40,814 bases of DNA, from positions 682,001-722,814 of the forward strand of contig RSEE01000029.1 of NCBI GenBank assembly GCA_003971905.1, in the 5' to 3' direction. Under the pieces are notes generated by a model. That model did not search any database and had not been told where the DNA came from. It saw nothing but the letters and a program-made list of their open reading frames with translations. Below are positions 1-40,814 of the stretch, piece after piece; position 1 is the stretch's first letter; each line of letters starts with the position of its first letter. The position numbers and the translations under genes were made by a program. The stretch comes from Moniliella sp. 'wahieum' (lineage: Eukaryota).

Positions 1-133
1 GAAGCTCACCCCCACCATCCCATTTTCTCACTTTCCTTTAGCAGCTTGAGCCCACACTTGACTTGTGGACAGACGTGTGGGCCACTCGCCTGCTGCCGCG
101 CCACCCTCCCACACGCTACCCCTTCCGTATCTG

Positions 134-2246
134 ATGCGCGTACCCAAGCCGTCTATAATGCCTGCCGTCCCCGCCGCCCCGGCTGCCCTCACGGTGGACG
201 ATGGCGCCCTGGCTCTTCCGCCGGCCCACGTGCACTTGTGCCGTCCATGTCGCGGCCAACAACACACACCCACTCGAGCTTGCCTTTGCAGGCTCTATGC
301 GGACCAAAGTCCTCTCCCTGGCAGATGCCGCGGCCCAGATCCAGAGCCCGGCGCACGCCAAGGCCTTGATTCACTTCTTGACCGAGGAACGTGGGTACAC
401 CCTCGCGGAGGTCCTTGCCGAGGTGCCGAATGGCTGTGTGCCCGTCACCCCCCGATCTACCCGGATTCCACGCGCTCGCCACGGACCCGCCTACCGTACC
501 TTGACCATGATGGCGCCCGCCCCAGCGGACAAACCGTGGAAGCTCATTGACCGTATCATCTCCTCCCAGGTGTTCCCTCCTGGCCTGCCTGCCCTGCCTT
601 GGGCTCCAGCAAGTGGTACATGCTCATGAAGAAGGGGTTACTGCAGTGTGTGGTCTGTGGCACATTCTCGAGAACGGTCCTGCGACAGCCGACGAGGTGG
701 CACTCGATTATGAATTGCCCGCCTGCCTCGCCGTGGGCATGGATGACGAGACCAGGTACATGGTACAGGACCGATCGGGACACGTGTGCGTGTTCCTACG
801 CAACCTGCACCGCCAGTACGGCGACGGGCACGACTTAGCCATGCGGGAAGTGTACCTGCGGCAGTTACTAGTTACTAGTTACTGCAGCTCCAGCCCAAGC
901 GCGGAGAGATGTTGCAGGAAATTTGTCGCGCATTGAGGTGTGAGCCCGCGATGCGTCTTGCTCGTCGAGAGCGATTCGGTGGCTTGTATGACCCTCCGCT
1001 CCGCTCGCTCTCTCGTCCACCCCCTCGGCATGATCAACCTCGCCTCGCGCACCGCACACACACACGCATCCAAGCTGTGCACCTCAGTGGCCTCGCGCTC
1101 GAGCTCCAGCCAACTACCGTTCCAGCCAGGCGGGATCGCGCCTGCCGCCGTGTGGCCAGCGGTCCGGCCAGGCCCGCGCAAGCGACCACCGTCCAACGGG
1201 GGACCGCCTGTCCATCCACCGCTCCCGCTACGCCTCCCACAGCCCTGCGGCACGCGCGTCCTCCACCCTTTCTCCCTCCTGCACCTCCACAGTCCCTGTC
1301 CCGCGCCACGGCGGGGGGACCGAGGTACGCGCTGACCGTGACAGATGCCTGTACGCAGTACGCCTGGACGCAGCCGTTGGTGCGGCAGCAAGATGCGACG
1401 GCGGCGGTGCAGGCGCTGATCTGGCGGGACCTTGCTCGTCCTGACCGGCGCCTTGAGACCGTGCGGTGCGACCATGTCCCCCCGCTCTCTACGGCTTTGG
1501 AGACGTTTTGTGCTGAGCTGGGCGTGGTGCGGCAGCGTGCGGATGCGCATGCGCATCCGGACCAAAAGGCGTCCGGGGGGAATGACACGGCCGGCGCACA
1601 CCGTCCATCATCCAATCTACCTTGCACTCTTGCACCGTGCCTGGAGCATGGTACGGTCCAACGGCTTGGTCTGGGACCAGTGGTCCACCACAACTCTCCT
1701 GGCCGCCACGTAAGCTGCCAACCAGGCCCGGCCCCGGTCCGCCCCACGGCCCCAACCCGGGCACCGGGAACGGCACCAGGAGACTGTGGGACAGACAGTC
1801 GGTTTGTGGCGTACCATGGGTTCCACCCCTTGGCTCGGCATGCCAGCGGCCCAGTTTGGCACGCCTCGCGTACCTGCCCGTGCGCCCGCGCATCAGCCCC
1901 ACGAGAAGACCGACACGCGTCCCCCTCCGCGTGCCAAGTCGAAATCGAATCCCGATCCGAATCTGAGCTCCAAGCCGAACGGCGGGCGCGTGCCATAATG
2001 CTGGTTGGGTACGGCCCCGGTCGGGGCGGGTTCCAGCGCTGGATATTTGTCGTCCCCCTACTGACGCAGGGCCAGGGGCAGGACCAAGTTGGGTCCCGGT
2101 GGCACCAGCCGTCGCACGCCAGCTTGACCCGCCTCCGGTACACTGACAAGTGCCCTGCTCACTTTCGGCCCCGCCCCGCCTCGCCTGGTGGTAACTGCGG
2201 CATGGGAGCTGATGCGCGGGAGACGAAGAGTTTGTCTGTGGTGTGA
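134..2246 (+). pseudogene. Ty1/copia integrase-derived gene or pseudogene with an unrecognised ~250-aa N-terminal domain
   Basis: Stitched across frames: RLAH...C-R-x-C (GAG-pre-integrase/HHCC-like, ~1040-1160; the CxxC needs one added base); PFSLLHLH (cf. copia PLELxHxD); GGPRYALTVTDACTQYAWTQPL; VRCD; FCAELGV; ALLHRAWSMVRSNGLVWDQWSTTTLLAAT (cf. TLLERARSMLxxxGLxxxFWxEAxxxAxY); RARAIMLVGY (copia SH3-like region). No YVDD RT, RNase H, protease or LTR seen. In-frame TAA at 1711-1713 and frame-breaking repeat at 863-883. Confidence 0.72.
863..883 (+). repeat. (AGTTACT)x3 perfect tandem heptamer inside coding sequence
   Basis: agttact agttact agttact read directly; AT-rich island in a GC-rich ORF. 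Confidence 0.97.
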
Positions 2247-3968
2247 TATGTGACGGGTTGCTTGTTGCTTGTGGCTTGTTATGGCTACACACGCACACTC
2301 TGTCCCCTGGCTGTGATCTTATATGAAAAAACTTATATGACCCTGTTTTTCCTCTTTCTTCAAACTTGAAGCTTGAACAGCTTGTCACCGCGAGTTGTGG
2401 TAGACGTCGCATGGTTGCTTGCCTCTCCTTCTCTCGGGTTAGTACATAACGCACAACACCATTCCATGCATTGAGCCAACGAATACGGATCATCGATTAT
2501 CATCCCCATTCAAAGCAATATTGAAGGCGCCCTCCAGCTTCAAGCATCACTAGCATTAGCCACCGCTCCTTGTCCCACTTCGGTCGCACTGCAAGGGAGA
2601 AAAAGAAGGCAGCAAGCCAGCGGCACAGGGATCCCACCCCACAAAAGAAAAGGCGCGCGGCGAAATGAACGATAATCGAGATGATCCATCATTTTGTCCC
2701 GAGGCGTGCCTGTGGGCCCACCCCGCGATGGAAGTTTGAAGCCGTTGGCCATCTCCGCAACACATTATGGCACCGCGTTCCATCAGTACTATCCGTTGAA
2801 CGTTGACCTTAGTTGGCCCAGTACTGCTGCCTGCTGGGGATACCCTTCTTCGACATCGACGAACGAAACAGCACTCTGATCCTCTTCCTCCCTTCCTCCC
2901 TGAGATGCAGTCTAGAACAATTGTTAATTGTTAGACACTACATGGTTTCAGGAGCTCAAACAAGAACCTTGGTATCTCTGACAGTTGGTTCTTCTCTCGT
3001 TATGCATAGACAAGGACGGTAGATAGATTATTGATTTTGACTGTTTGTATTTCTCTGTGTTGTGCTCTTTCAGTATACTTGTTTCTTTCCTCACTTCCCT
3101 CCGCCTCTCTGACGCTTTTTGTTACGCGGCGCTCCATTTATCTCCGGACCGTATGTCGTAAACATTATCTCATCCGAACACGCTTCAGCCTCGTTAGATT
3201 AGCGAGAGCGAGCCAGAAGGAACCTTATCCATGCTGCGGATACTTTCAGTATAGCGCCTGCTCTTCTTTAGGACTCCATCTGATCCCGCTTACTACAGCG
3301 CGTCGAGTATGGTGACGCTGCAGGGAACAGCGTTACCGGTAAGGTTACCCGGACTCCTGGACGCCTTCAACTGGTCCGACAGCCTACGCACGCGTCTCCT
3401 GCTTCAGAGGGTCTGTCTGAGTTGCGGCCTTTGCACCCAGGCACCTCCCAAACTAGAGGGTCTCCCTCGCCTCTACACCCGCTGGGTTCAACCAGGATCT
3501 GAGGCAGGACCTGACGTACGAGACTCCGATTGGACTGTACAACGGTTTATACCCCCAAACTACAGAGGTGGGCCCCACCTCGCCCCCCCCATGATGCTTT
3601 TGTCCCTTTGCATTTGGCCAATTTCCAAGCATACACACATATGTGGGGTTTTGGGGCCAGAAGCGTACAAGAATCTATGCAGTCAGACTCTTCTCTCGTG
3701 TCGCAGTGCACACAACTCTTCTTGCTGATCCCTTACCTGGCAGGAAGCGGGGTGCCATCTTGGTGGTGGCGCCGTGGCAAGCGGGCATTGCGGATGAGAG
3801 GGTGTAAAAGGGTACGAAGACCGTTTTTCCAGCGCCTTGTGATGAGGATGCTGCGCTGAAATCGGTGCAATTGCGATGTGGCTCTCACGCTCCAGGCGGG
3901 ACGCAACCACACCCAGCCAGACCCAGCGCACCCAACCCACCGCTCGTCCTCTCTCCGCCCGCCCCGCC

Positions 3969-6469
3969 ATGTCTGCGCCCCCCATCCCGCCCCGCCCCAC
4001 CCGCACCCGCAGCAGCAGCACCACACCACCACCACCACCACCGCCGCCGCCTCCTCCGCCCTCCACAAACCACCACCCCACCCCCGCCCGTCGGGGCACT
4101 GCCTTGCCGTACCAGCCGCGCCAGCGCCCCCCGCGTCCTCCGCCTCCTCCGCGCCCCCCCGCCCCGTCCGCCGACCCACATCCCCCCGCCCAGTCCCCCT
4201 CCGTCCCGCACCTGCCCACACGCCCTTCCTCCGCCTCTCGCCCGCCCCTCTCCCTCCCGGCCACCCCAGCCGGCCGCGAGGAGGCGGTGCCGCTACGCGA
4301 GCGGACAGGCCGCCTGCTCGCACGCGGCGAGAACTACCTCGCCACCCGCGACTGGCGTGGCCTCGGCTCCAGTGCCAAGTCGCGTCTCGGAGGCCTCCTC
4401 CATGGCGACGGCGCGCGCGATGCCAGCCCCCCCGGGGGGATGCGGCCATGGCGGACGAGGTGACGCCCATTTTACTCCCTGGCTTTGCGCTGGCCCACCC
4501 AGACGCCGCGGCTACCGACACTGCGCTCAGCGTCTATTGCCATGGCATCGTCTTTCGCCTGCCCCAGACACCCGGTACCAGGCAGAAGCTCTTCAACACT
4601 ATGGCTCGCCAGGTATGCCATGCCCCCCCCCCCCCCCTAGAACCCGTTCGCCTCGCTTCTTCGCTTGGTGCCTCGCTGACCCCGCCGCCTCCCTTCGCAG
4701 CTCGCCGGTATTCCCAAGGCCCCACAGCCTACTCGTTCCGTTACCCTTTCTACCCCTGCCTCTCCACAATCGAGCCGGAGTAGCCTGGCGCAATCCCGTG
4801 ACCTCTTCGATGCGCCATTAGCTGACGAACCCGAGTCGGAGCTCGAAGCCGACTGGGACGAGGGCGTGCCAGACGCTGCGTCCGCCCATCCCGGCCTGCC
4901 CACTTCCAACGGTGTATCTGCTGCCCCGTCTTCACCCGGGCCGCGAGGGACGCCATCCAAGCGCCTCTCCACACTCCAACGACTCTCCACCTTACCCGCC
5001 AAAGCGGAAGCAGCGTGGCTCGGCGGCGGCGCCGGTACCCACACTGGTCTTGTCCCGGGCCCGCTACCGGCCCCCATTCTCCTGGCTCGGGCTCCATCTG
5101 GGCCGGCCGTTCGGCCGAAGAGTTGGAGGTGCTGCGGTTTAACCTCGAATCCCGCTTGCACGAGTTTGGTCGTACAGGGTGGAATGGTGTCCTATGACCA
5201 TCGAGGTGCAACCTCTCCTGCGCCGGCCCCCCTCCCCCGGGCGCCCCCATCCTCCCGCCACCTCGCCCGCACGGGTCCCCCTTGTTGGCCGTAACTTCGA
5301 CCCGGGCCGGCAAGGGAGGCGTGTTTGATGTGACGCTTTCGGTTTCGCGGACCAAACGGGACGAGTTTATGAACAAGGTTTACCCGGGCCACAGCTGGGA
5401 CGAGGAGGAGGCACTCCGGGTGCGTGCGGTACTTGGATCGGTCGAAGGGGCTGGGGTGACCCAGCCCTCGTTTGCTGGCAAGGCGACAGGCTGGATGCGG
5501 GTAGACATCACGCATGACGGGCCGGGCCAGGTACGGGTCGTGTCGGACATTGACGATACGCTCAAGGTGACCGAAGTGACTGCGGGGATGCGAACCGTGT
5601 TCCAAAATGTGTTTGTGCGCAACTACACTGAGGTACTGGTGCCTGGGATGTGCGAGTGGCTCACCGCCATGGCCAAGGAAAACGTTGGCATCCATTACCT
5701 GTCCAATGCACCCAATGAGCTCCATTCCGTCGTCCAAGACTTTTTGACCGCCAACCAATTCCCATCCGGCCATGTCCACTTGAAAGACTACCCCAGCGGG
5801 CCGTTTGACCTGCTCAATTCCTGGCTCGAGCCCGCCGGCGAACGCAAACGACCTGCCTTGAACCGCATCCTCTCTGCCTTCCCCAACAGCCGCTTTGTCT
5901 TGCTCGGCGACTCGGGCGAACTGGACCTCGACATTTACACTTCTCTCGCCATGGAACACCCCCATCGCATTTGCGCCATCTATATCCGTGACGTGCATTC
6001 TCCACGGGCGCTGGACAACCCCGACTCGATCCGTGTGGCACGCTTGTTGGCGCAGCGCAATCGCCGGATCGGCTTTGCTACCTCGTACGATGCCCAAGCC
6101 CTGGCGCAGGACCTGCCCTTTGACCCGGACCGCCGCCAAGGCCAGGGCCAAGGCCGAGCCCAAGCACAGCCGCACCCCGACGATAGCGATGAAGGCTGGC
6201 CGCCGTTGGTGGAAGGCTACCCGTTTCCTGGGAGCAAGTTTAGCAACTTACTCTTCACCCTGCCTCCGCCATATGGAAGCGCGCCTCCGCTTCTGCCTGA
6301 AGGCGATGTGCCCGGGGACGATAGCGTGCCCAACACCCCCCGTAAACGCTCCCCCCACGAACTATTTACATCCGTGTCCGCCGCGCCGTCGAACTTCTCC
6401 CTCCCACCACCCTCCTCACCGTCTTTGGCCGCCAAGACCCCACCCCCGTCGCCGAGGCGCTCAGCGTGA
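3969..6469 (+). CDS. APP1: App1-family phosphatidate phosphatase (actin patch protein 1-like)
   Basis: Pro-rich N-terminus from ATG 3969. Intron 4613-4700 (GTATGC...CTGAC...CAG). Catalytic VVSDIDDTLKVT (DxDxT), HYLSNAP, FVLLGDSGELDLDIY and IYIRDV in ORF 5282-6469. Several frameshifts upstream; 3' end approximate. Confidence 0.9.
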
Positions 6470-6801
6470 TCCACCGCGGCCGGCAGCATCGCTCTTGACC
6501 CGGCAAGAAGAATAGCACTTGAGCAGAGGATTGGTCCAAATCAAGTGGTGCGTGCGACGGGGTGTGTGGGGCGAGACAAGGGAGAAGGAAGAAGGAGAGG
6601 GGAGAGGGATGAAGTCTATCTGATCTGTATGATCACAGTTGTATGTATGTGAAGTCCGCTTGGTACGGCACGTGTCTAGGGTATGCAATGCAGACGGGCT
6701 CCGAGGGCAAGGAGAACAACAATCCTACTAGGCGGGCTGGATTCAAGCAAGGGGCGGAGCACGGCAGGGGAGAGGTTAGAGCATCCTTGCCGAGACAGTA
6801 T

Positions 6802-9800
6802 CTAGATCCCCCACTTGGCCACTGCGCTCTGGACGATGACTGCGTTCCAATCGGGTTCGCTGCGTGGGTCGTCGACGGATCGGCGAAGCAGGCCCTCCTG
6901 GGCAGTGCGTTTGCGAGTAAGGATGTGCCGTAGCTGGGCGCGGAACTGGCGGAGACATGCGTCGGGGTGGGCCAGGCCGCCTTCGGGCGCGGCCGGTGGC
7001 CCAGCAGCCACAAGCGCATCCAGGCCGGCCGAGATGAGTTCGACGAGGCTGTTGAGGAAGCGCGCTTGGATCTGTTCGACGCCATGCTCAAAGTAGTACA
7101 GGTACTGGTCCAGCGCCGAGCAAAAGATCTCGACCGTCGAGCGCTCGTCAATGCAGCTGTTGGCGATCCGCAGTGCCTTTTGCAGACACTCCAACACCCG
7201 CTTCCCATCCCGCAACAAGGGCTGCGGGCCATGCGGCCGCCGGTCCCACGTCCCATTCGACCCGGCCTCCAGCGTGTGCAGCGCCGCCTCGGCCACCGCC
7301 GCTCCCATCCGCTCTCCCGACGGCGCCAGCGTCTTTCCCACCTCGGCGCCGCCATACGCTTCGGTCTGCCACCACAGGTGCGAGGCCATGAGCACGGCCG
7401 TGGCCTGGTGCGGCTTTTTGAGTAACTTGGCCCCATGCAGCGTCGCCTTGGTGATCAGCCGATCGTAGTTCTCCTCCCCGAACCCACGCGCCGTGTGGAG
7501 GGTGGAGATGACGAGGCCAATCGCCTGCAACTGCGCACGCGACTCACTGATCGATTCCTCGTACACAGTGAACGCCTGCACATAAAACTCATACGCTTGC
7601 TCCTCAAACCCACACGCATCCGCACTCTGCGCCACTAGCAGGTACAACCGCAAGCACAGATCCGACACGAGTTGGACTCGATCCGGTGTAGAGGAGACCA
7701 ATGATTTGGTGCACAAACTTGTACAGCGCCTCCATCTTGCGTGCCCACGCACTCCATCCACTGCCACTGCCACTGCCACTGTCACTGCCCTGCGTGCCGG
7801 CCGTCTCGGTCGCCGCCACGTTCTCCCGCAACTTGAACCGGCGCGCCAGTTGGACCGTGGCAAAGACAAGCGTGGGCAGCGTAAAGCGGATCCGGTCGCC
7901 GCCCTGGATAAAGTGCGTGCGTGCCGTTTGGAGCAAGACGAATTGTGTCTCCACATCTTCCGCCCGGAACAGGTGGACCAAGCGCGCCAGCCAGCCTTGC
8001 TCTTCCTTCACCTCTTCCGCCTCGGCGGCCGTGACGGGCGCAGACAGGCGCGTCGTCCCCGTCGCCACAGCTTGGCTCTCCCGCGGCGGCACCACCAACG
8101 TCCCACACAGCGACAAGATCCCTTCCACATCTTCCGCCGTCGCTAGCACCGTCTCGTTCTTGAGGGTGGAGCGGACAATGGCTTGGGCAATGTGTTTGTG
8201 CGTCGCGAACGGCTGGAGAGCCAGAGCGTAGGGTAGTGCGGCAGCGCAAGCAAGGTGAGGGTGGAGGTGTAGGCTTCGATCGGCAAGGCCAGTACTTGGT
8301 CAAGTTCTTTGTGTCTCATCGGCCAAAAGGAGCGGGTCGTTGGCTTGCGCATGCGCTTCCACATGGGCCGCAGCAAAGCCCAGCACTTGGTCCACATACT
8401 CCAATCGGTCCGGATAACACGACAAGCTCAGCTGCAACAGCGATACCAGCAGCGCCGTCACATCGGGCAAGGATAGGTCCGGCCGGGCCTGGATCAGGTT
8501 CACCACCTGGGCCCAAAATACCTCGAACAACGGCACGTTCACCGGTACCCCGCGGAATTTTTCCACATTCTCGTCCAGCTCATCCAGCTCCTCAATCGCA
8601 GGCGCCGGTGCTGGCGTTGGTGGTACAGGTGCCACCGCCCCCGATGGCAGCCCGGACCGCATCTCCTGTCCTCCTGCCGAGACGGTCGATCCCGATCGCG
8701 GACGGGCGTCTGTCCGTTCGCGTTCCCATCCCCTTCCCAGCCACTTGCGTTGTCGGGATGAGAGGGCGGCTGGGCCGAGGATGGGCTTGCGGCGGCAACG
8801 GCGGCGGCACCAGATTGTTCAAATAGGCTCTCCGCGTCCCCTCCCTCTTGCTTGGCATGAGCAGCGAAGCGGGGTTGGGTCGAGCTCGAGCCATCGGGCA
8901 CAGCAGCGCCCTTGGTGGCGAAAGCGGCCCCCGGAGATCCTGGCATAGCTCCAGCTTGGCGGGCCGCAAGGCGCAATTGACGTGTCTTTTCGGCCAAGCG
9001 CTGGGTTGCCAGCTGTTCTTGCCTTCGGATCTCGTCTGCATTGTCGTTCTCCGCTTCACGCTGGGCGTAGGCGGCAATGCGGTTGATCAGTGCAATCACA
9101 ATTCCTTGATGTTGACCTTGGGATGGAGCTTGGAACAGGCCTGGAGGAAAGGACTGAGGGTGCGGATGTGAAAGTCGTCGGGGAAGACTTGGATCACCAC
9201 CTCCATCAGGTACTCTTGCGCAATCACATCTTTGCAGTTGACCACCTGCTCCAGAATGGCAGGCAGGATGACTTGGCGGTACAGCGGGAGCCCCACGCCT
9301 TCCAGCTCGGACAGACGCACAAGGTTGGTCCCGATGAGGATGCGCAGTTCGCGGCGCTCCGACTCGCGGCGCTCCCGTTCGCGCGACGGGCCCTGGTGCT
9401 GCAACCGCACCCAGAGCTTGTTCATCTCAATAAAGTTGGTCAGCACAAACCCGATCGAGTCCTGCAGGCTGCCCTCGGGCCGAGGCTCGTGCCGGTGGGC
9501 AAGTGGTCCCGCGTCACGCCGGACAGGTAGTTGCGCAAGAACAGGCCCCGGGTCGGGTGCTGCACGCCCCGACTCATCTCCATCATGTCGCGCATGATCT
9601 CCTGCACGGGCGCATCGGGAATCGACATGTACACGCCGCCCACTGTGATCATCAGGTAGAGGCGCGGGACGATGCTGCCGCAGTACTGCACCAGCTCGTA
9701 CAGCTCGGCCAGGTGGTGGCGGCCATCGAGGTGGGCGTCGCGGAGGTAGGCGGCGAGGTGGCGCAGCGCATCAAACACAGGCACATCTGCAGGCACGAGC

Positions 9801-10049
9801 ACGAGCACGCGCACAGGCACACAGGTCAGCGACACGGCAGCAGCGCAGCAGCCAGCTGTGGACGGCAGGGGACATACACAGGTCGTAGTACGCCTTGGGC
9901 GACAGGGCCGAGGTGCGCAGCTCGGCCAGCATGGTCGCGGCCTTGAGTGCGTCCATGAGCTGGTCGGCGTCGAGGCAGTGCACCATCTGGGCCAGCTGGA
10001 TGCGGATGGAGTGGGTGGCCTCGGCGATGACCTTGGCGGCATCGTCCAT
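6802..10049 (-). CDS. VPS35: Retromer subunit Vps35
   Basis: [47 protein letters not shown] (PRLYL motif); [54 protein letters not shown]. Intron 9787-9877 (GTATGT...CTGAC...CAG). Multiple frameshifts. Confidence 0.96.
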
Positions 10050-10253: not shown

Positions 10254-13145
10254 ATGAGCGACGCGTCCGCTGCGCTGCAGCAGCTCCTCGCCATCGTCGA
10301 CGCCCAGGACGCCGCCTCGGTTGCCCGCGCATCCCACATCCTCGCCGCCCACAACACAACCTCCCGGCCGCCATCGATGCCTGGTTTGCCCCGGCGGCGG
10401 AGGCCGCCGTGCCCCTCGCGCTCCAGCCTGCGCCCCAACCAGCGCCTCAGCCCGCGCCCCAACCTGAGCAACCGCAACCGCAAGCGCACCCGCAACCGCA
10501 ACCCCCTCCCGCCGCGCTCTCCGCCCCCGCCCCTTCTCCCACCGACACGGTCTCGGCGCCCGAGACGGCTGGCGCCCTGCTTCCGCTCCACCCGGCTCCG
10601 GGCGACGACAAGCCCGGCCCCGGCAGTCTGCGTCGCTCGGCACGCCTCAGCCAGCCTCCTGGCCCGCAGCCAGGCCCCATCCCGGCCTCTTCGGCGCCCA
10701 CACACACCCGCACCTGCACCCGCACCCGCACCCGCACCCTCGCCTCCTGCGCCTGCGCCTGCGCTCTCCCCCGCCCCCTGCACCGCACCGGCCCGAGATT
10801 ATTGATCTGTCCGGCCCCGACCCCCTCCGGCCTATGCTGCGGCCAACGGCGGCGTCGACGACGACGACGCCTTGGCCCAGGCCCTCGCCGCCAGCCTTGC
10901 CGATGCCGAGGGCACCGCCCACCTCTCCGCTCCTCCGCCCCCCTCTGAGACCGAGCCTTCCGCCTCCTCGCCCTACTCCCGGCCACCCCCCTGCCTGTCC
11001 GGCCCGAGCGGCCGCTCCGGCCAGAAGTCTCCTCGGTCGCCTGGCGCGACCCTGCCCATCCCCCGGCCCTGGTCGCATCCCATTCGTTTTTCCAGCCGCT
11101 GGCAGCGCTGCTGCAGGCGCTGTACGCCGTGCCTTCCGTACGCCATCTCGTCCTCTCCATGCACCTCCCTCCCCTCCCATCCCTGTGGCAAACACCGAGG
11201 AGCTGGTGATCGATGTGCATGATATGTGGCGGGGCAAGCGCCCTGTTTGGTCCGCCCGCCCGCGCTCTGGACGGGACACTGCTATGCCTGATCTTCTCGG
11301 TCCGGAAACAGATGCCGAGCCCGGCCTGATACAGGACGATCCGCAACAACTTTCGCAACCGGTGGAAGCCTACATCACCGCCGAGGTTGCCAGGACCATC
11401 TCCGCGCCTGAGCTTGCTCTGCTGCGCAACACCCAAGTCCTGTTCGCCTACCTTTTCTCCACCCAACGGGCGTGGGTCCAAGTTCCCGATTCGTTGTTGG
11501 GACTGACAGAGGGGGATGTGGCGAGTCCTTGGAGTCGGCGGTGGGACCCCGTAGGTCAATCGGTCTGGAGCCTCTATGGCCGTTTGTCCCGCGCATTGGA
11601 CAAGTACGCGGAACTGGTGCAACGTGTCACAACCGATGCATCTACCGTCCCCTCCCCCACCGGGGCAGGAAATTCAAATTCGGCGGCTGGATCAGAACAC
11701 CAACCTCTTTGCTCTCTCCACCCGCCCGGCCGATGGGGAGGTAGACGACGCATCGGTTCTGGCAGTCGGTGTTACGGGTATCTCTGTCCCGCCTGTGTCG
11801 AACGAGATGGGGGAGGCAGCCAAGACGGTGGCCGAGTGGGCAACCCAACGGCCCATCTCCTATGCCCTGTACCAGTTCCTCCAGCGCAGCACTCGACGCC
11901 TCGTCACGCCCCCGCGGTTCTTGCCCTGTTTTCAGCCAGCAATGGGGTGGCAGGCATGGGTGCCAGTGGAGGCGGCGCCACGGCACGGCTGATCCCTTCG
12001 TTCGGATTGGCTTTGCTCGACGACCCACAAGAGGAGGAACGTAAGGCGATCGAATCGGATCTTCTGCCGCTCAGCGATGCGCCTGTTCCCCTGCCAGACC
12101 TGAGCGCTACTCCCGCCTCGTTTGTCTCGGAACCAGTACTGAACATTGGACCTCTTGCCCACCCCCATCGCCAGCCAGCCGCGAGGAGCGAGAGAAGCAC
12201 ATGGCCCAACTCGTCTCCCAGCTGGGAAACCTGCGCAAGTGGAAGACGGAAGATCCCAAGATCTTGCTTGACCAAGCCATCGCCTACTTTGAGCGCATTG
12301 CTGCTCCAGTCGGATCGGGCGCAGCTACAGTCGCGGCCGCCGCAGCTGGCACTCACACGTTGCCACCTGCTAGCCAAGTGGCCCGGGCAGAAGCCGCACA
12401 ACAAACGCTCCTCCACCTCCGAACCGCCGCCCGAGTTGGGTTCTTGAACGCGGTCGAGAAGCGACAGGCAGCGCTCGCGCGCGCCAAACAAGCTAGCGCT
12501 CACGAGGCCATGGAAGCAGCAAAGCAAGTGGCCCTAGACACGGTGGCGTGGCCTAGGTACCGTCTTGCCGCCCTGGTCGTACCGCGCGGGCCGGGCTTGT
12601 TCCCGCCCTCGGCATCGGCTGTCGTCCGCTTGCCCCCCTCTCCACCCACCTTGCCCAGCAGGGGCGAGTGGGCACACATCCGTCCCGCACTGGACCAAGT
12701 GGAGCAAGAAACGGATACGGCTGGCATCTCGGTGCTGTCGGATAACCAAGTCCCCGAGGCGGGCACAGCGGCCGTGCTGGCACTATACGAGATGGAAATG
12801 CCACCGCCGCAGGGAAGTTCGGAGGCTGCGACAACGCTGCCCGACACGGACGAGCGGGCTGGTACTGCGACGGTGACGGCTACTACGACGCCGCCTCTGG
12901 TCGCGGCCGTCGAACGGGCGACGGTGGCAGACAATGCGGGGATCATTGCGGCGCTAGCGGCGCAGCTGGGGCCATTGCCCGAGGAGGATGCGGCAACTGC
13001 AGCGGCGGCGGCGGCGGCGGCGGCGGCGGCAGTCGTAGCGGCCGCCCAACAGATGGGCCCGCCGACCTACCCGCCGCCCGAGGGCGAGCCCCCCGACGAT
13101 ATCGAGATGCGCGATGCGTCGCAGCCGTACAGCAGCTACAGCTAG
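10254..13145 (+). CDS. Rup1/Ucp6-like ubiquitin-binding protein (UBA-like + UIM + inactive USP-like region)
   Basis: N-terminal LQQLLAIV...ASHILAAHNNNLPAAIDAWFA (UBA-like, after one frameshift); UIM-like DDDDALAQALAASLAD at ~10857-10904; LAALLQALYAVPSVRHLV and LLRNTQVLFAYLFSTQRAWV resemble blocks in fungal Rup1-like proteins. Stop at 13145. Family call is from memory of motifs. Confidence 0.6.
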
Positions 13146-38472: not shown

Positions 38473-40748
38473 TTAATGCATCAGCGCCACGTGACTGGTT
38501 GACGGAGAGTAGAAAGAAAGAGAAAAGTATCGACCAGAAGGATACTGTTGTTTTGTCCAAAAGAGGACGCGACAAGACGGTGTACGCGTTAGTAGTGTGT
38601 GGTGTACAAGAGGCGCGATCGTGTCCCATCCCTTGCCTTCGACCTGGGCAGAGCCATTCTCGACGAACACCTTCATACGGTGCTGGTTGGTGGCGGGGTA
38701 GATGCGCGAGGTAAGAGAGTGACGGCCGTTGACAAAGACTTGCAACACAGAGTGGTCAAGCAGCACCTTGAGGTCAAGGGTCTCCCAGCCGTCGGGGTGA
38801 GAGAAGAGCATCAGGGGACCGCGTCGGGCGAGGAGTCATAGTCAGCTTGCTGCTGGGCATGAAAGTCTCGTTCCATCCTTGAGTCATGTCCTTGGGAAGG
38901 TCATAGACATGGGACTTGCTGCGGTCGACGATGAGCTGCGAAGTGTTCATGTCGAGCTCAATGCGCGTCTCGCGAGGCTGATTCGGGTTACGGAGAAGTT
39001 CCTGGGGGCAGTCGAGCCAGGGTTGACATGCTCGATCACGAAGCCGACCTTGCAGGGAAGCTCCGAGCCGAACTTGAACGTGCTGTGGAAGAGGACGTTG
39101 GAAGGCAAGACGTGGGGCGCAAATGCCTTCTCGCCATTCAGCTGGGTCGAGGGAACTGCCAGTTGCGCTGCGCCTTCGACTTGAGACCCTTCCACACGCC
39201 CGGGTGCGGACGAACGGCGAGCAGGCTGAACTCGCCCTTCTCTGCAGAGGCACGACCAAGCCAGTAGCAGCAAACGTCCTTAGAGATGAGCGAGCCAGTC
39301 ACGTCACAACCACTTGCTGGTACACTCGGTCGCAAGGCCAAGAGTGCCCGCCCAGCCTTGAGCCCGACGCTGGGCAACCGTGAAGCTGTCGTCGTTGACC
39401 CTGTGGGGATAATTTGTCGTGGTCAATAAAAGAACAGCAAAAAGGACAGTCACGACGATCAAGGGAGAAAGTACGTACCCAAGAGAAGCTGCATCTGGGT
39501 GGCGTGTCGTAAAACGTGTTGAGCGCATAGAGACTTCCGAGATCGACCGGCCCGCTGGCGAGGGCTCCAAGAGGGACTTGCGGGGTAGTAACGTTGAAGC
39601 CGGCGGGAGGAACCTGAGGAAGAGAGGGTTTGAGCGCGAACAGCAGCGAGTGGCACAGTGTGGCGGGCACAGACGTAGGAAGCCAAGCAGAGTCCCTTCA
39701 GCGCCGAGCATCATGAAAGCCATGTCCTTTTCGACGCCCGTAGCGGGGTATTCCGTGCCATTCGCCCACCGCCGGTCCAAGCGAGGCAGCACCGACGGCA
39801 TCTCAAAGTTGGTGCCGAGACCAGCGTTGTGGGTGCCAATGGTAGCGTTGATGCTGACATGGGGCATCAGCCCGACGTAGGTCCAGTTGGTGATGACGGG
39901 CGCATCGCACTGCGGCTGGGTCGCCAGGGTGAAGAGGTAGCAAGCAGGACCGTCGTTGTGCAGACCACCGCAAAGGATGCCGAACCAGTTGCTCGAGAGG
40001 TTGAGGTGCTTGGCGAGCACAGGCCAGTCGAAGACGAATGGGTCGCGGAAGCCCGTGGCACGGGAAAGGCGCTCTCCACCGGGGGCCATGTGGTCCGGGT
40101 AGCCATAGTCAAGCTCCCGGGGCGGACCGGGCAGAATGGGGTTCATGTCGTGCTTGGTCCACGTTGCCTTGGTCATCACTCTCAGCCCAAACCAGAGTCT
40201 CGTGGCCGTAGGGGTAGGGCGCGATGTCCCAGTGGATGGGGTATTGAGCCGCACCGGTGTAGAGAGTGAGAATCTTCTGCGGGTCGCGCTGGCAGCCGTT
40301 GTTGGGGTCCAGGACCGGGAGAGCGGTACCGGTGAAGACACCCGAACGGTCCGTGCCCACCTTGGAGGGAGCGAGCGCAAGGTTGGCGCGGCGTACATGC
40401 CGGGAGGGGCAAGGCGCCACTCCAGCATGTCGTCAGAAATGCTGTGGCCCCAGCTTCGTTGGTGCCTCCTGCCTCCGTGTCGAGGGGCGACCACTCGTAG
40501 TAGGCATGGTAGGCCCGCCGGGAGGTGGATGAGGGTGGACGGGTCGTTCATCCACCCATAGGGAGCGGTGAGGACGGTGTCGGGCGGAAAGTGTGGAAAA
40601 GCGGGGCCTTGGGCAGCAAGGCCTCGGCTGCGAGCTGGGTGGCGGCAGTGATGTGCGTGGGCGGATGCCTGGTCTGGTTCGACAGCGGGAGAGCGGCGGC
40701 GGGCGCGGGCCGCCAGTAAGGCGATGGGAGCGAAGAGGCGGGGTGCAT
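38473..40748 (-). CDS. GH32 beta-fructofuranosidase/invertase (fungal fructosyltransferase-like), probably secreted
   Basis: FRP...GWMNDP (nucleophile Asp); WGHSISDDMLEW; VFTG; FRDP; NFEMP (acid/base Glu); YALNTFYD; C-terminal LDLKVLLDHSVLQVFVNGRHSLTSRIYP. Hydrophobic signal-like N-terminus after frame repair. Intron ~39401-39478. True stop may be near 38590. Confidence 0.93.
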
Positions 40749-40814
40749 GGTGGTGGTGGGGGTGAGGAGGGCCTGGGCAGCGCAGTGGTAGACGGGTGGG
40801 GCGGAGACTATTTA

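Follow-up and report, generated by a model that had tools for sequence, protein, structure and literature searches.

A copia-derived locus joining a probable capsid fragment to a degenerate integrase in a fungal genome: a candidate domesticated gene

Introduction

A copia-type integrase that ends at a stop codon, with no reverse transcriptase (RT) or RNase H behind it, raises the question of whether it belongs to a host gene, to an element of a new kind, or to the remains of an ordinary retrotransposon. Such a locus lies at positions 134–2246 of a 40,814-nt stretch of Moniliella sp. 'wahieum' DNA (contig RSEE01000029.1, positions 682,001–722,814; hereafter, the window). A preliminary description had proposed that the integrase was captured behind another domain, in either a host-domesticated gene, possibly decaying, or an undescribed integrase-only element family. 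The locus derives from copia and does not represent a new element family. As read from its sequence, it appears to be an internally deleted gag-pol in which the front half of the capsid is joined to the integrase, the integrase assignment being firm and the gag assignment moderate.

Genomic setting and quality of the assembly

The window is fungal: Pfam matches, from 101/138 long open reading frames (ORFs) scanned, identified APP1, VPS35, glycerol-3-phosphate dehydrogenase, a cyclin, PAP2, NDK, a PHD protein, and malic enzyme. Indels are frequent in the assembly. Six separate ORFs match the Vps35 family, and one junction alone was read as an intron. APP1 (positions 3970–6500, plus strand) and VPS35 (positions 6802–10049, minus strand), which lie tail to tail, each contain several frame breaks, and a codon model placed 8–11 frame switches in the 2531 nt of APP1, a region that may include an intron, and 6–9 in 2982 nt of VPS35. 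About 5–12 switches per 2110 nt were obtained for the locus, so that its frame-break density is near that of these two host genes; the breaks of the locus are therefore unreadable as decay without controls. Indel errors in VPS35 and APP1 amount to roughly one per 300–500 coding bases, and any claim of a frameshift or readthrough made from the assembly thus requires reads.

Three other parts of the window contain open frames without a Pfam match. A 157-codon open frame lies at positions 3255–3728 (plus strand) amid intergenic DNA of about 52% GC; long Pro/Ala-rich open frames of 659 and 366 codons at positions 10468–13145 (plus strand) are probably one unannotated gene; and a broken frame at positions 39304–40812 (minus strand), with no Pfam match at an E-value of 1e−4, has motifs that resemble an invertase (GH32) by eye.

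Identity of the copia-type integrase

Frameshift-aware alignment recovered the elements of a Ty1/copia integrase in the correct order over positions 1029–2045, namely, the pre-integrase His pair, the core, and the C-terminal GY/SH3-like part. The integrase profile score was 66.2 bits, which was reached by none of 60 shuffles (maximum, 25.8) and none of 55 other window chunks (maximum, 24.7), and both counts were unchanged under two other penalty sets. These results bear out the earlier statement that copia-like integrase motifs run in order over approximately 1030–2110. The profiles were built from 43 integrase, 23 protease, 19 RT, and 19 (later 29) gag sequences, which were taken from 63 copia-like loci and three proteins; near-duplicates, three weak matches, and short pieces were excluded.

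The pre-integrase zinc-binding region (positions 1029–1153, plus strand) has its His pair and has lost the conserved Trp, and its CxxC is readable only across a frame break. The integrase core (positions 1237–1722, plus strand) was located by a Pfam rve match, tblastn, and the frameshift-aware alignments, and the C-terminal SH3-like part, with the pattern L..RA....GY..G..R, was aligned at positions 1932–2045 (plus strand). The stop codon occupies positions 2244–2246 (plus strand), in agreement with the stop described at 2246. Taken alone, the rve match, which is carried by the frame-3 ORF at positions 879–2246, is weak (positions 1308–1541, E-value of 6.8e−4, 20.3 bits against a cut-off of 32.6). 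The top ESM Atlas match (0.91) bears gag_pre-integrs, SH3_retrovirus, and rve domains and has only 151 features in common with the query. A phmmer search of 1.84 billion representatives gave a single match, a plant copia protein with 27% identity, and tblastn with this protein (P0001) returned 26–27% identity at an E-value of 2e−8; the match runs through the copia-type repeats of P0001 (residues 352–436 and 496–583), not its C-terminal integrase-like part. Further homologue searches found nothing close beyond this plant match, and an APP1 relative at 61% identity is present in the same collections. Scans of viral contigs contained no copia.

Within the core, just before a degenerate PQQNG motif, there is a 26-nt near-perfect palindrome (positions 1537–1562, 13-nt arms, no loop), which overlaps a 6-nt tandem repeat. 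Separately, matches to a copia polyprotein were obtained in 59 stretches of species genomes from bacteria and archaea (L005–L063). Most are clearly eukaryotic copia elements, probably on contaminating contigs; two of them (L005 and L035) share one 2.77-Mb contig of a metagenome-assembled genome labelled Nitrospirales.

Catalytic state of the integrase

The first catalytic Asp is missing: a His stands at about positions 1288–1290, and no Asp codon occurs in any frame of positions 1261–1316. The second catalytic Asp is retained at positions 1470–1472. The catalytic Glu is missing on the best alignment paths, with ambiguity at a G-run near positions 1575–1582; on one other path it is present, but directly before a stop. 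There are 44 columns that ≥80% of the references conserve; the 43 reference elements keep 77–100% of them and the locus keeps 18/44 on the automated path, or about 21 by eye. A TAA at positions 1711–1713 was not counted as a nonsense change, since the aligner sets a frame switch exactly there.

The D-D-E triad is required for integration, and because it is damaged here, the integrase looks catalytically dead to judge from its residues, and the protein of the locus should be unable to integrate DNA. With such a triad, the locus could not be an autonomous transposase.

A probable capsid piece upstream of the integrase

The region upstream of the integrase, described earlier as about 250 amino acids without a gag zinc knuckle or a protease, is not one ORF in the assembly. 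The absence of those two parts stood, there being no signal above chance, and the single non-gag domain was not borne out, positions 614–909 (plus strand) being probably capsid. Forced alignment to gag profile columns 32–134 marks these positions as probably the N-terminal 60% or so of a Ty1/copia capsid; one member of the gag profile matches the Drosophila Copia virus-like particle protein (8s41) at residues 5–184, and the piece is therefore roughly the first 60% of the capsid. The piece is read mostly in frame 1 (positions 649–870) and in frame 3 after a perfect triple 7-nt tandem repeat (positions 863–883, plus strand; TRF period 7, 3.0 copies, 100%), which breaks the gag frame. By eye, a GLW motif near 650 is followed by a capsid-like helical core, and an LRNLHRQYG...LRQLL stretch aligns to the capsid core.

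As assembled, the forced alignment was equalled by 2 of 150 shuffles and 9 of 148 host chunks; when the triple repeat was collapsed to one unit, it was equalled by 0 of 150 shuffles and 0–2 of 148 host chunks. Both the column range and the collapse were picked after looking at the data. Among 31 profile segments of equal length, the best from the gag front half reached z-scores of 2.7–3.4 with the repeat collapsed (0 of 74 chunks as high) and 1.5–2.5 as assembled, while other gag segments reached at most 1.6 and 17 segments of RT, protease, and integrase at most 1.2. Local searches did not find gag. Pfam gave no match, hmmsearch gave −2.0 bits (a value reached by 196 of the 1366 shuffles that received a score among 2000), hhalign gave a probability of 0.3%, and the frameshift-aware local score was matched by 11–33 of 150 shuffles. 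Sequence searches of the PDB with the gag piece and the integrase core returned no matches, and an ESM Atlas query of positions 511–933 returned nothing usable. A match of the N-terminal part to gag, which the preliminary description had named as evidence against its own reading, was thus found at moderate strength, forced alignment passing where local searches fail. On this alignment evidence we consider a copia gag origin of positions 614–909 quite probable, and the idea that the integrase was captured behind some other domain is unsupported, since the adjoining part is most likely copia gag.

Of the lesions in the locus, the 7-nt repeat is the likeliest to be real and not an assembly error: a 14-nt tandem expansion is unlike a one-base assembly slip. 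The other period-7 arrays in the TRF table are mostly outside identified genes. An intron across the repeat, judged by eye, was unsupported. The same 10-mer occurs at two frame breaks of the gag part, positions 637–646 and 878–887, probably by chance. A CVVC motif, tried as the first half of a zinc knuckle, was at chance level (31 of 100 shuffles as high) and belongs to frame 2, where it overlaps the frame-1 GLW motif.

The junction at positions 910–1028 (plus strand) was defined by the alignment paths and leads from the capsid piece to a G.LY motif (positions 978–989) ahead of the pre-integrase region. Only about 40 codons separate the capsid piece from the G.LY/pre-integrase start, and the rest of gag and the protease must therefore have been deleted; judged from profile lengths, the missing capsid remainder, zinc knuckle, and protease amount to roughly 240 codons.

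In front of the capsid piece lies an unmatched, coding-like N-terminal segment of about 150 codons (positions 134–608, plus strand) with a GC3 of 0.74–0.77. The codon model follows its frames, which start in frame 2 with the ATG at 134, run to about 238, and continue in frame 3 at positions 240–608, the switch being placed at 242; a Met-Met at positions 507–512 is another possible start. Pfam gave nothing below an E-value of 0.27 for positions 134–608, and a low-confidence single-sequence fold of positions 240–608 (pLDDT 52) had no Foldseek match at an E-value ≤0.001. Three helices predicted at positions 318–422 (pLDDT 64–78) have, by eye, a faint likeness to what we take to be the starts of XRE-type helix-turn-helix proteins. 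Upstream of the locus, a pyrimidine tract ending in TAG CAG (positions 20–44) could be a 3' splice site, with a possible upstream exon beyond the window.

Apparent preservation of the reading frame

We next consider a plain old relic, that is, an internally deleted and 3'-truncated copia copy in neutral decay, in which stops accumulate slowly in GC-rich DNA. Gag plus integrase is the expected leftover of a deleted copia, the catalytic residues are lost, the 7-mer repeat breaks the frame, the homologue searches found no orthologue, and non-coding DNA in the window reaches 69% GC. All of these points favor a relic.

The frame itself argues against it. Neutral simulations required about 0.3 substitutions/site to halve the conserved columns, a depth that produces 6.5–14.4 stops per 657 codons. 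With the same aligner, lesions per codon were 0.0147 in the locus (0.019 on 268 profile columns, as the denominator includes 81 inserted codons), compared with 0.029–0.041 in neutral runs and 0.013–0.014 in frame-kept runs; a density as low as that of the locus occurred in 11 of 360 neutral runs and 63 of 120 frame-kept runs. Assembly errors at 1 per 250–400 nt were added in these simulations, and only runs scoring 55–90 bits were retained. A homology-free codon model gave −26 bits/kb for the locus, a value reached by 26 of 240 neutral runs at depth 0.2, by none of 240 at depth 0.3 or at depth 0.4, and by 86 of 120 frame-kept runs at depth 0.3. The rarity of these signals in neutral runs at the needed depth held even at an equilibrium GC of 0.60–0.72. 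The number of frame switches cuts both ways. The locus has 4.7 switches/kb, against means of 2.5–3.1 in frame-kept runs and 5.9–8.3 in neutral runs; this value exceeds about nine in ten frame-kept runs, as a relic would predict, and is as low in 16 of 240 neutral runs at depth 0.3. The two simulations, which were compared blind with the locus and used unrelated progenitors and assumed mutation spectra, favor a kept reading frame over neutral decay.

Composition was also compared. The GC contents at codon positions 1, 2, and 3 are 0.71/0.49/0.71 in the locus and 0.65/0.44/0.77 in host genes, and the fit of the synonymous codons of the locus to the host model is weak (−0.03 bits/codon relative to local composition, a measure on which 12 of 14 host pieces come out positive). 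A GC change point was placed at 2225 (interval, 2183–2245); at the in-frame stop codon, GC declines from 0.68 to 0.50, as it does at the APP1 3' end, a coincidence that speaks against a relic. The same test was uninformative at the VPS35 end because APP1 adjoins it.

Several apparent arguments were set aside. The GC richness of the locus (0.66) does resemble that of neighboring genes, as had been claimed, but was rejected as evidence of a gene, since one VPS35 intron is itself 69% GC. The absence of stops on a 657-codon path was rejected because the frames were picked by eye, and stop counts on automated paths were rejected because neutral runs, too, keep few stops once the aligner has stepped around them (0.2–0.9 per run). 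The statement that all breaks are one-base losses was likewise rejected, since the codon model calls switches in either direction, in the locus as in host genes.

This pattern is what a frame long kept and perhaps broken lately would give. A relic in neutral decay keeps a real but minority place among the explanations; if it is correct, the locus is ordinary. The reading that we lean towards, somewhat in preference to the others, is a lineage-restricted domesticated copia-derived gene, perhaps recently broken, and about half of the probability that we give to it falls to a gene that is still intact. The part of the preliminary description that spoke of a host-domesticated, possibly decaying gene thus gains support from frame preservation beyond that of the neutral runs and from the GC drop at the stop.

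Missing element parts and flanking sequences

Profile scores for RT and RNase H in positions 1700–3900 were at chance level (21–28 of 30 shuffles as high), in keeping with the earlier remark that neither follows the integrase, and so were those for protease in positions 1–1100 (12–91 of 100 shuffles as high). No pair of long terminal repeats (LTRs), primer-binding site, polypurine tract, or target-site duplication (TSD) was found in positions 1–4000, of which 133 nt lie upstream of the ATG.

These flanks bear on a second alternative, a non-autonomous copia derivative spread by helper enzymes, in which selection acting on the element, and not on its host, would keep the ORF open. Such a derivative would account for an open frame alongside a dead integrase, and a weak primer-binding-site-like word does occur at 511, after a CA at positions 506–507, at the level expected by chance in GC-rich DNA. 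Against it, no LTR pair was found, the one candidate (positions 472–505 and 2112–2147) being matched by 48 of 300 shuffles and rejected as chance, and the gag piece is without the parts required for packaging. We regard such a derivative as improbable.

A third alternative, either an integrase-only element that is still active or an integrase placed behind some entirely unrelated host domain, could account for the failure of local searches to detect gag and for the lack of a match at positions 134–600, but it is highly improbable: gag front-half segments score at the expected place where the 17 non-gag segments do not, the first catalytic Asp is missing in every frame, and no pair resembling terminal inverted repeats (TIRs) encloses the locus in the window (5' flank, 133 nt). 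With gag most likely adjoining the integrase and the triad damaged, the proposed integrase-only element family is unsupported.

Proposed origin and function

On the favored reading, the locus descended from one Ty1/copia insertion. An internal deletion would have removed the zinc knuckle and the protease together with most of the C-terminal part of the capsid, and RT and RNase H would have been lost from the 3' end. The remainder would be a frame of about 580–700 codons composed of the unmatched N-terminal piece, the capsid front, and the integrase. The simulations suggest that selection preserved this open frame even as half of the invariant residues of the integrase were replaced, and the combination of an open frame and changed residues points to a host use other than integration. 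The 7-mer repeat possibly broke the gene recently.

By analogy with known capsid and integrase derivatives, the likeliest job, which we propose tentatively, may be that of a dominant-negative brake on copia elements. The capsid piece would enter particles without closing the lattice, and the dead integrase would bind cDNA ends or poison the multimer, as an inactive subunit is able to do. Nearly as likely is a GIN2-like role, in which the protein would bind DNA or chromatin without catalysis. We think it doubtful, more so than either role, that the locus is now an intact, expressed host gene that would restrict the genome's copia elements at both particle assembly and integration. In that case, it would stand as a two-headed counterpart to DRT2 and as a domestication of a copia integrase in fungi that is undescribed as far as we searched; if real, it would be a testable form of transposon control built from the structural and enzymatic parts of its target.

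Comparison with known systems

Co-opted gag genes, including fungal copia-derived ones, and co-opted Gypsy/Ginger integrases are already known. In the literature covered, mostly open-access main texts, no host gene composed of a copia capsid piece and a dead copia integrase is described. The main text of PMC10799480 contains neither "copia" nor "rve"; its candidate tables, and those of PMC8321522, could hold a capsid-integrase case.

The closest relatives of the locus are the Ty1/copia elements (Pseudoviridae; L001 and the Drosophila Copia capsid, 8s41/8vvw), with which it shares copia-type motifs and the order of capsid (here a probable one), pre-integrase region, core, and SH3-like end. It differs from them in being without protease, zinc knuckle, RT, and RNase H, with no LTRs seen, in having its capsid front joined directly to the integrase, and in keeping only 18/44 invariant columns.

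Among co-opted genes, DRT2 of Saccharomyces cerevisiae is described in PMC13709905 as a fixed Ty1/copia-family relic with an ORF that was retained during the decay of the element. It is a gag of about 1 kb that acts via the capsid C-terminal domain, its product (Drt2) poisons Ty1', and its case is backed by dN/dS, transcript, and knockout data (PMC13709905). The locus resembles this account of DRT2 in being a putatively kept ORF from a copia-family insertion, and DRT2 is a model for a dominant-negative capsid piece; unlike DRT2, the locus keeps what is probably the capsid N-terminal part and adds a dead integrase. Crtg12 and Crtg13 are, in the main text of Wang and Han (2021, PMC8321522), single-copy co-opted fungal genes from Ty1/copia gag that are common to families of other fungi, and the word integrase is absent from that text. 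By that description, they are fungal like the locus and share its probable derivation from Ty1/copia gag.

On the integrase side, the vertebrate GIN1 and GIN2 are host genes derived from an integrase. In PMC3424704, HHCC is said to be kept, the conservation of DDE in GIN2 is doubtful, and a non-catalytic nucleic-acid-binding role is proposed for GIN2. Unlike the locus, they derive from Gypsy-like/Ginger integrases of animals and are without a capsid part. The Ginger1 and Ginger2 DNA transposons, as outlined in PMC2836005, have a Gypsy-like integrase, and Ginger1 has TIRs and 4-bp TSDs. On that outline, they resemble the locus in having an integrase-like protein without RT, whereas the locus has an integrase of the copia type with a damaged triad and no TIR pair seen around it, its 5' flank in the window being short.
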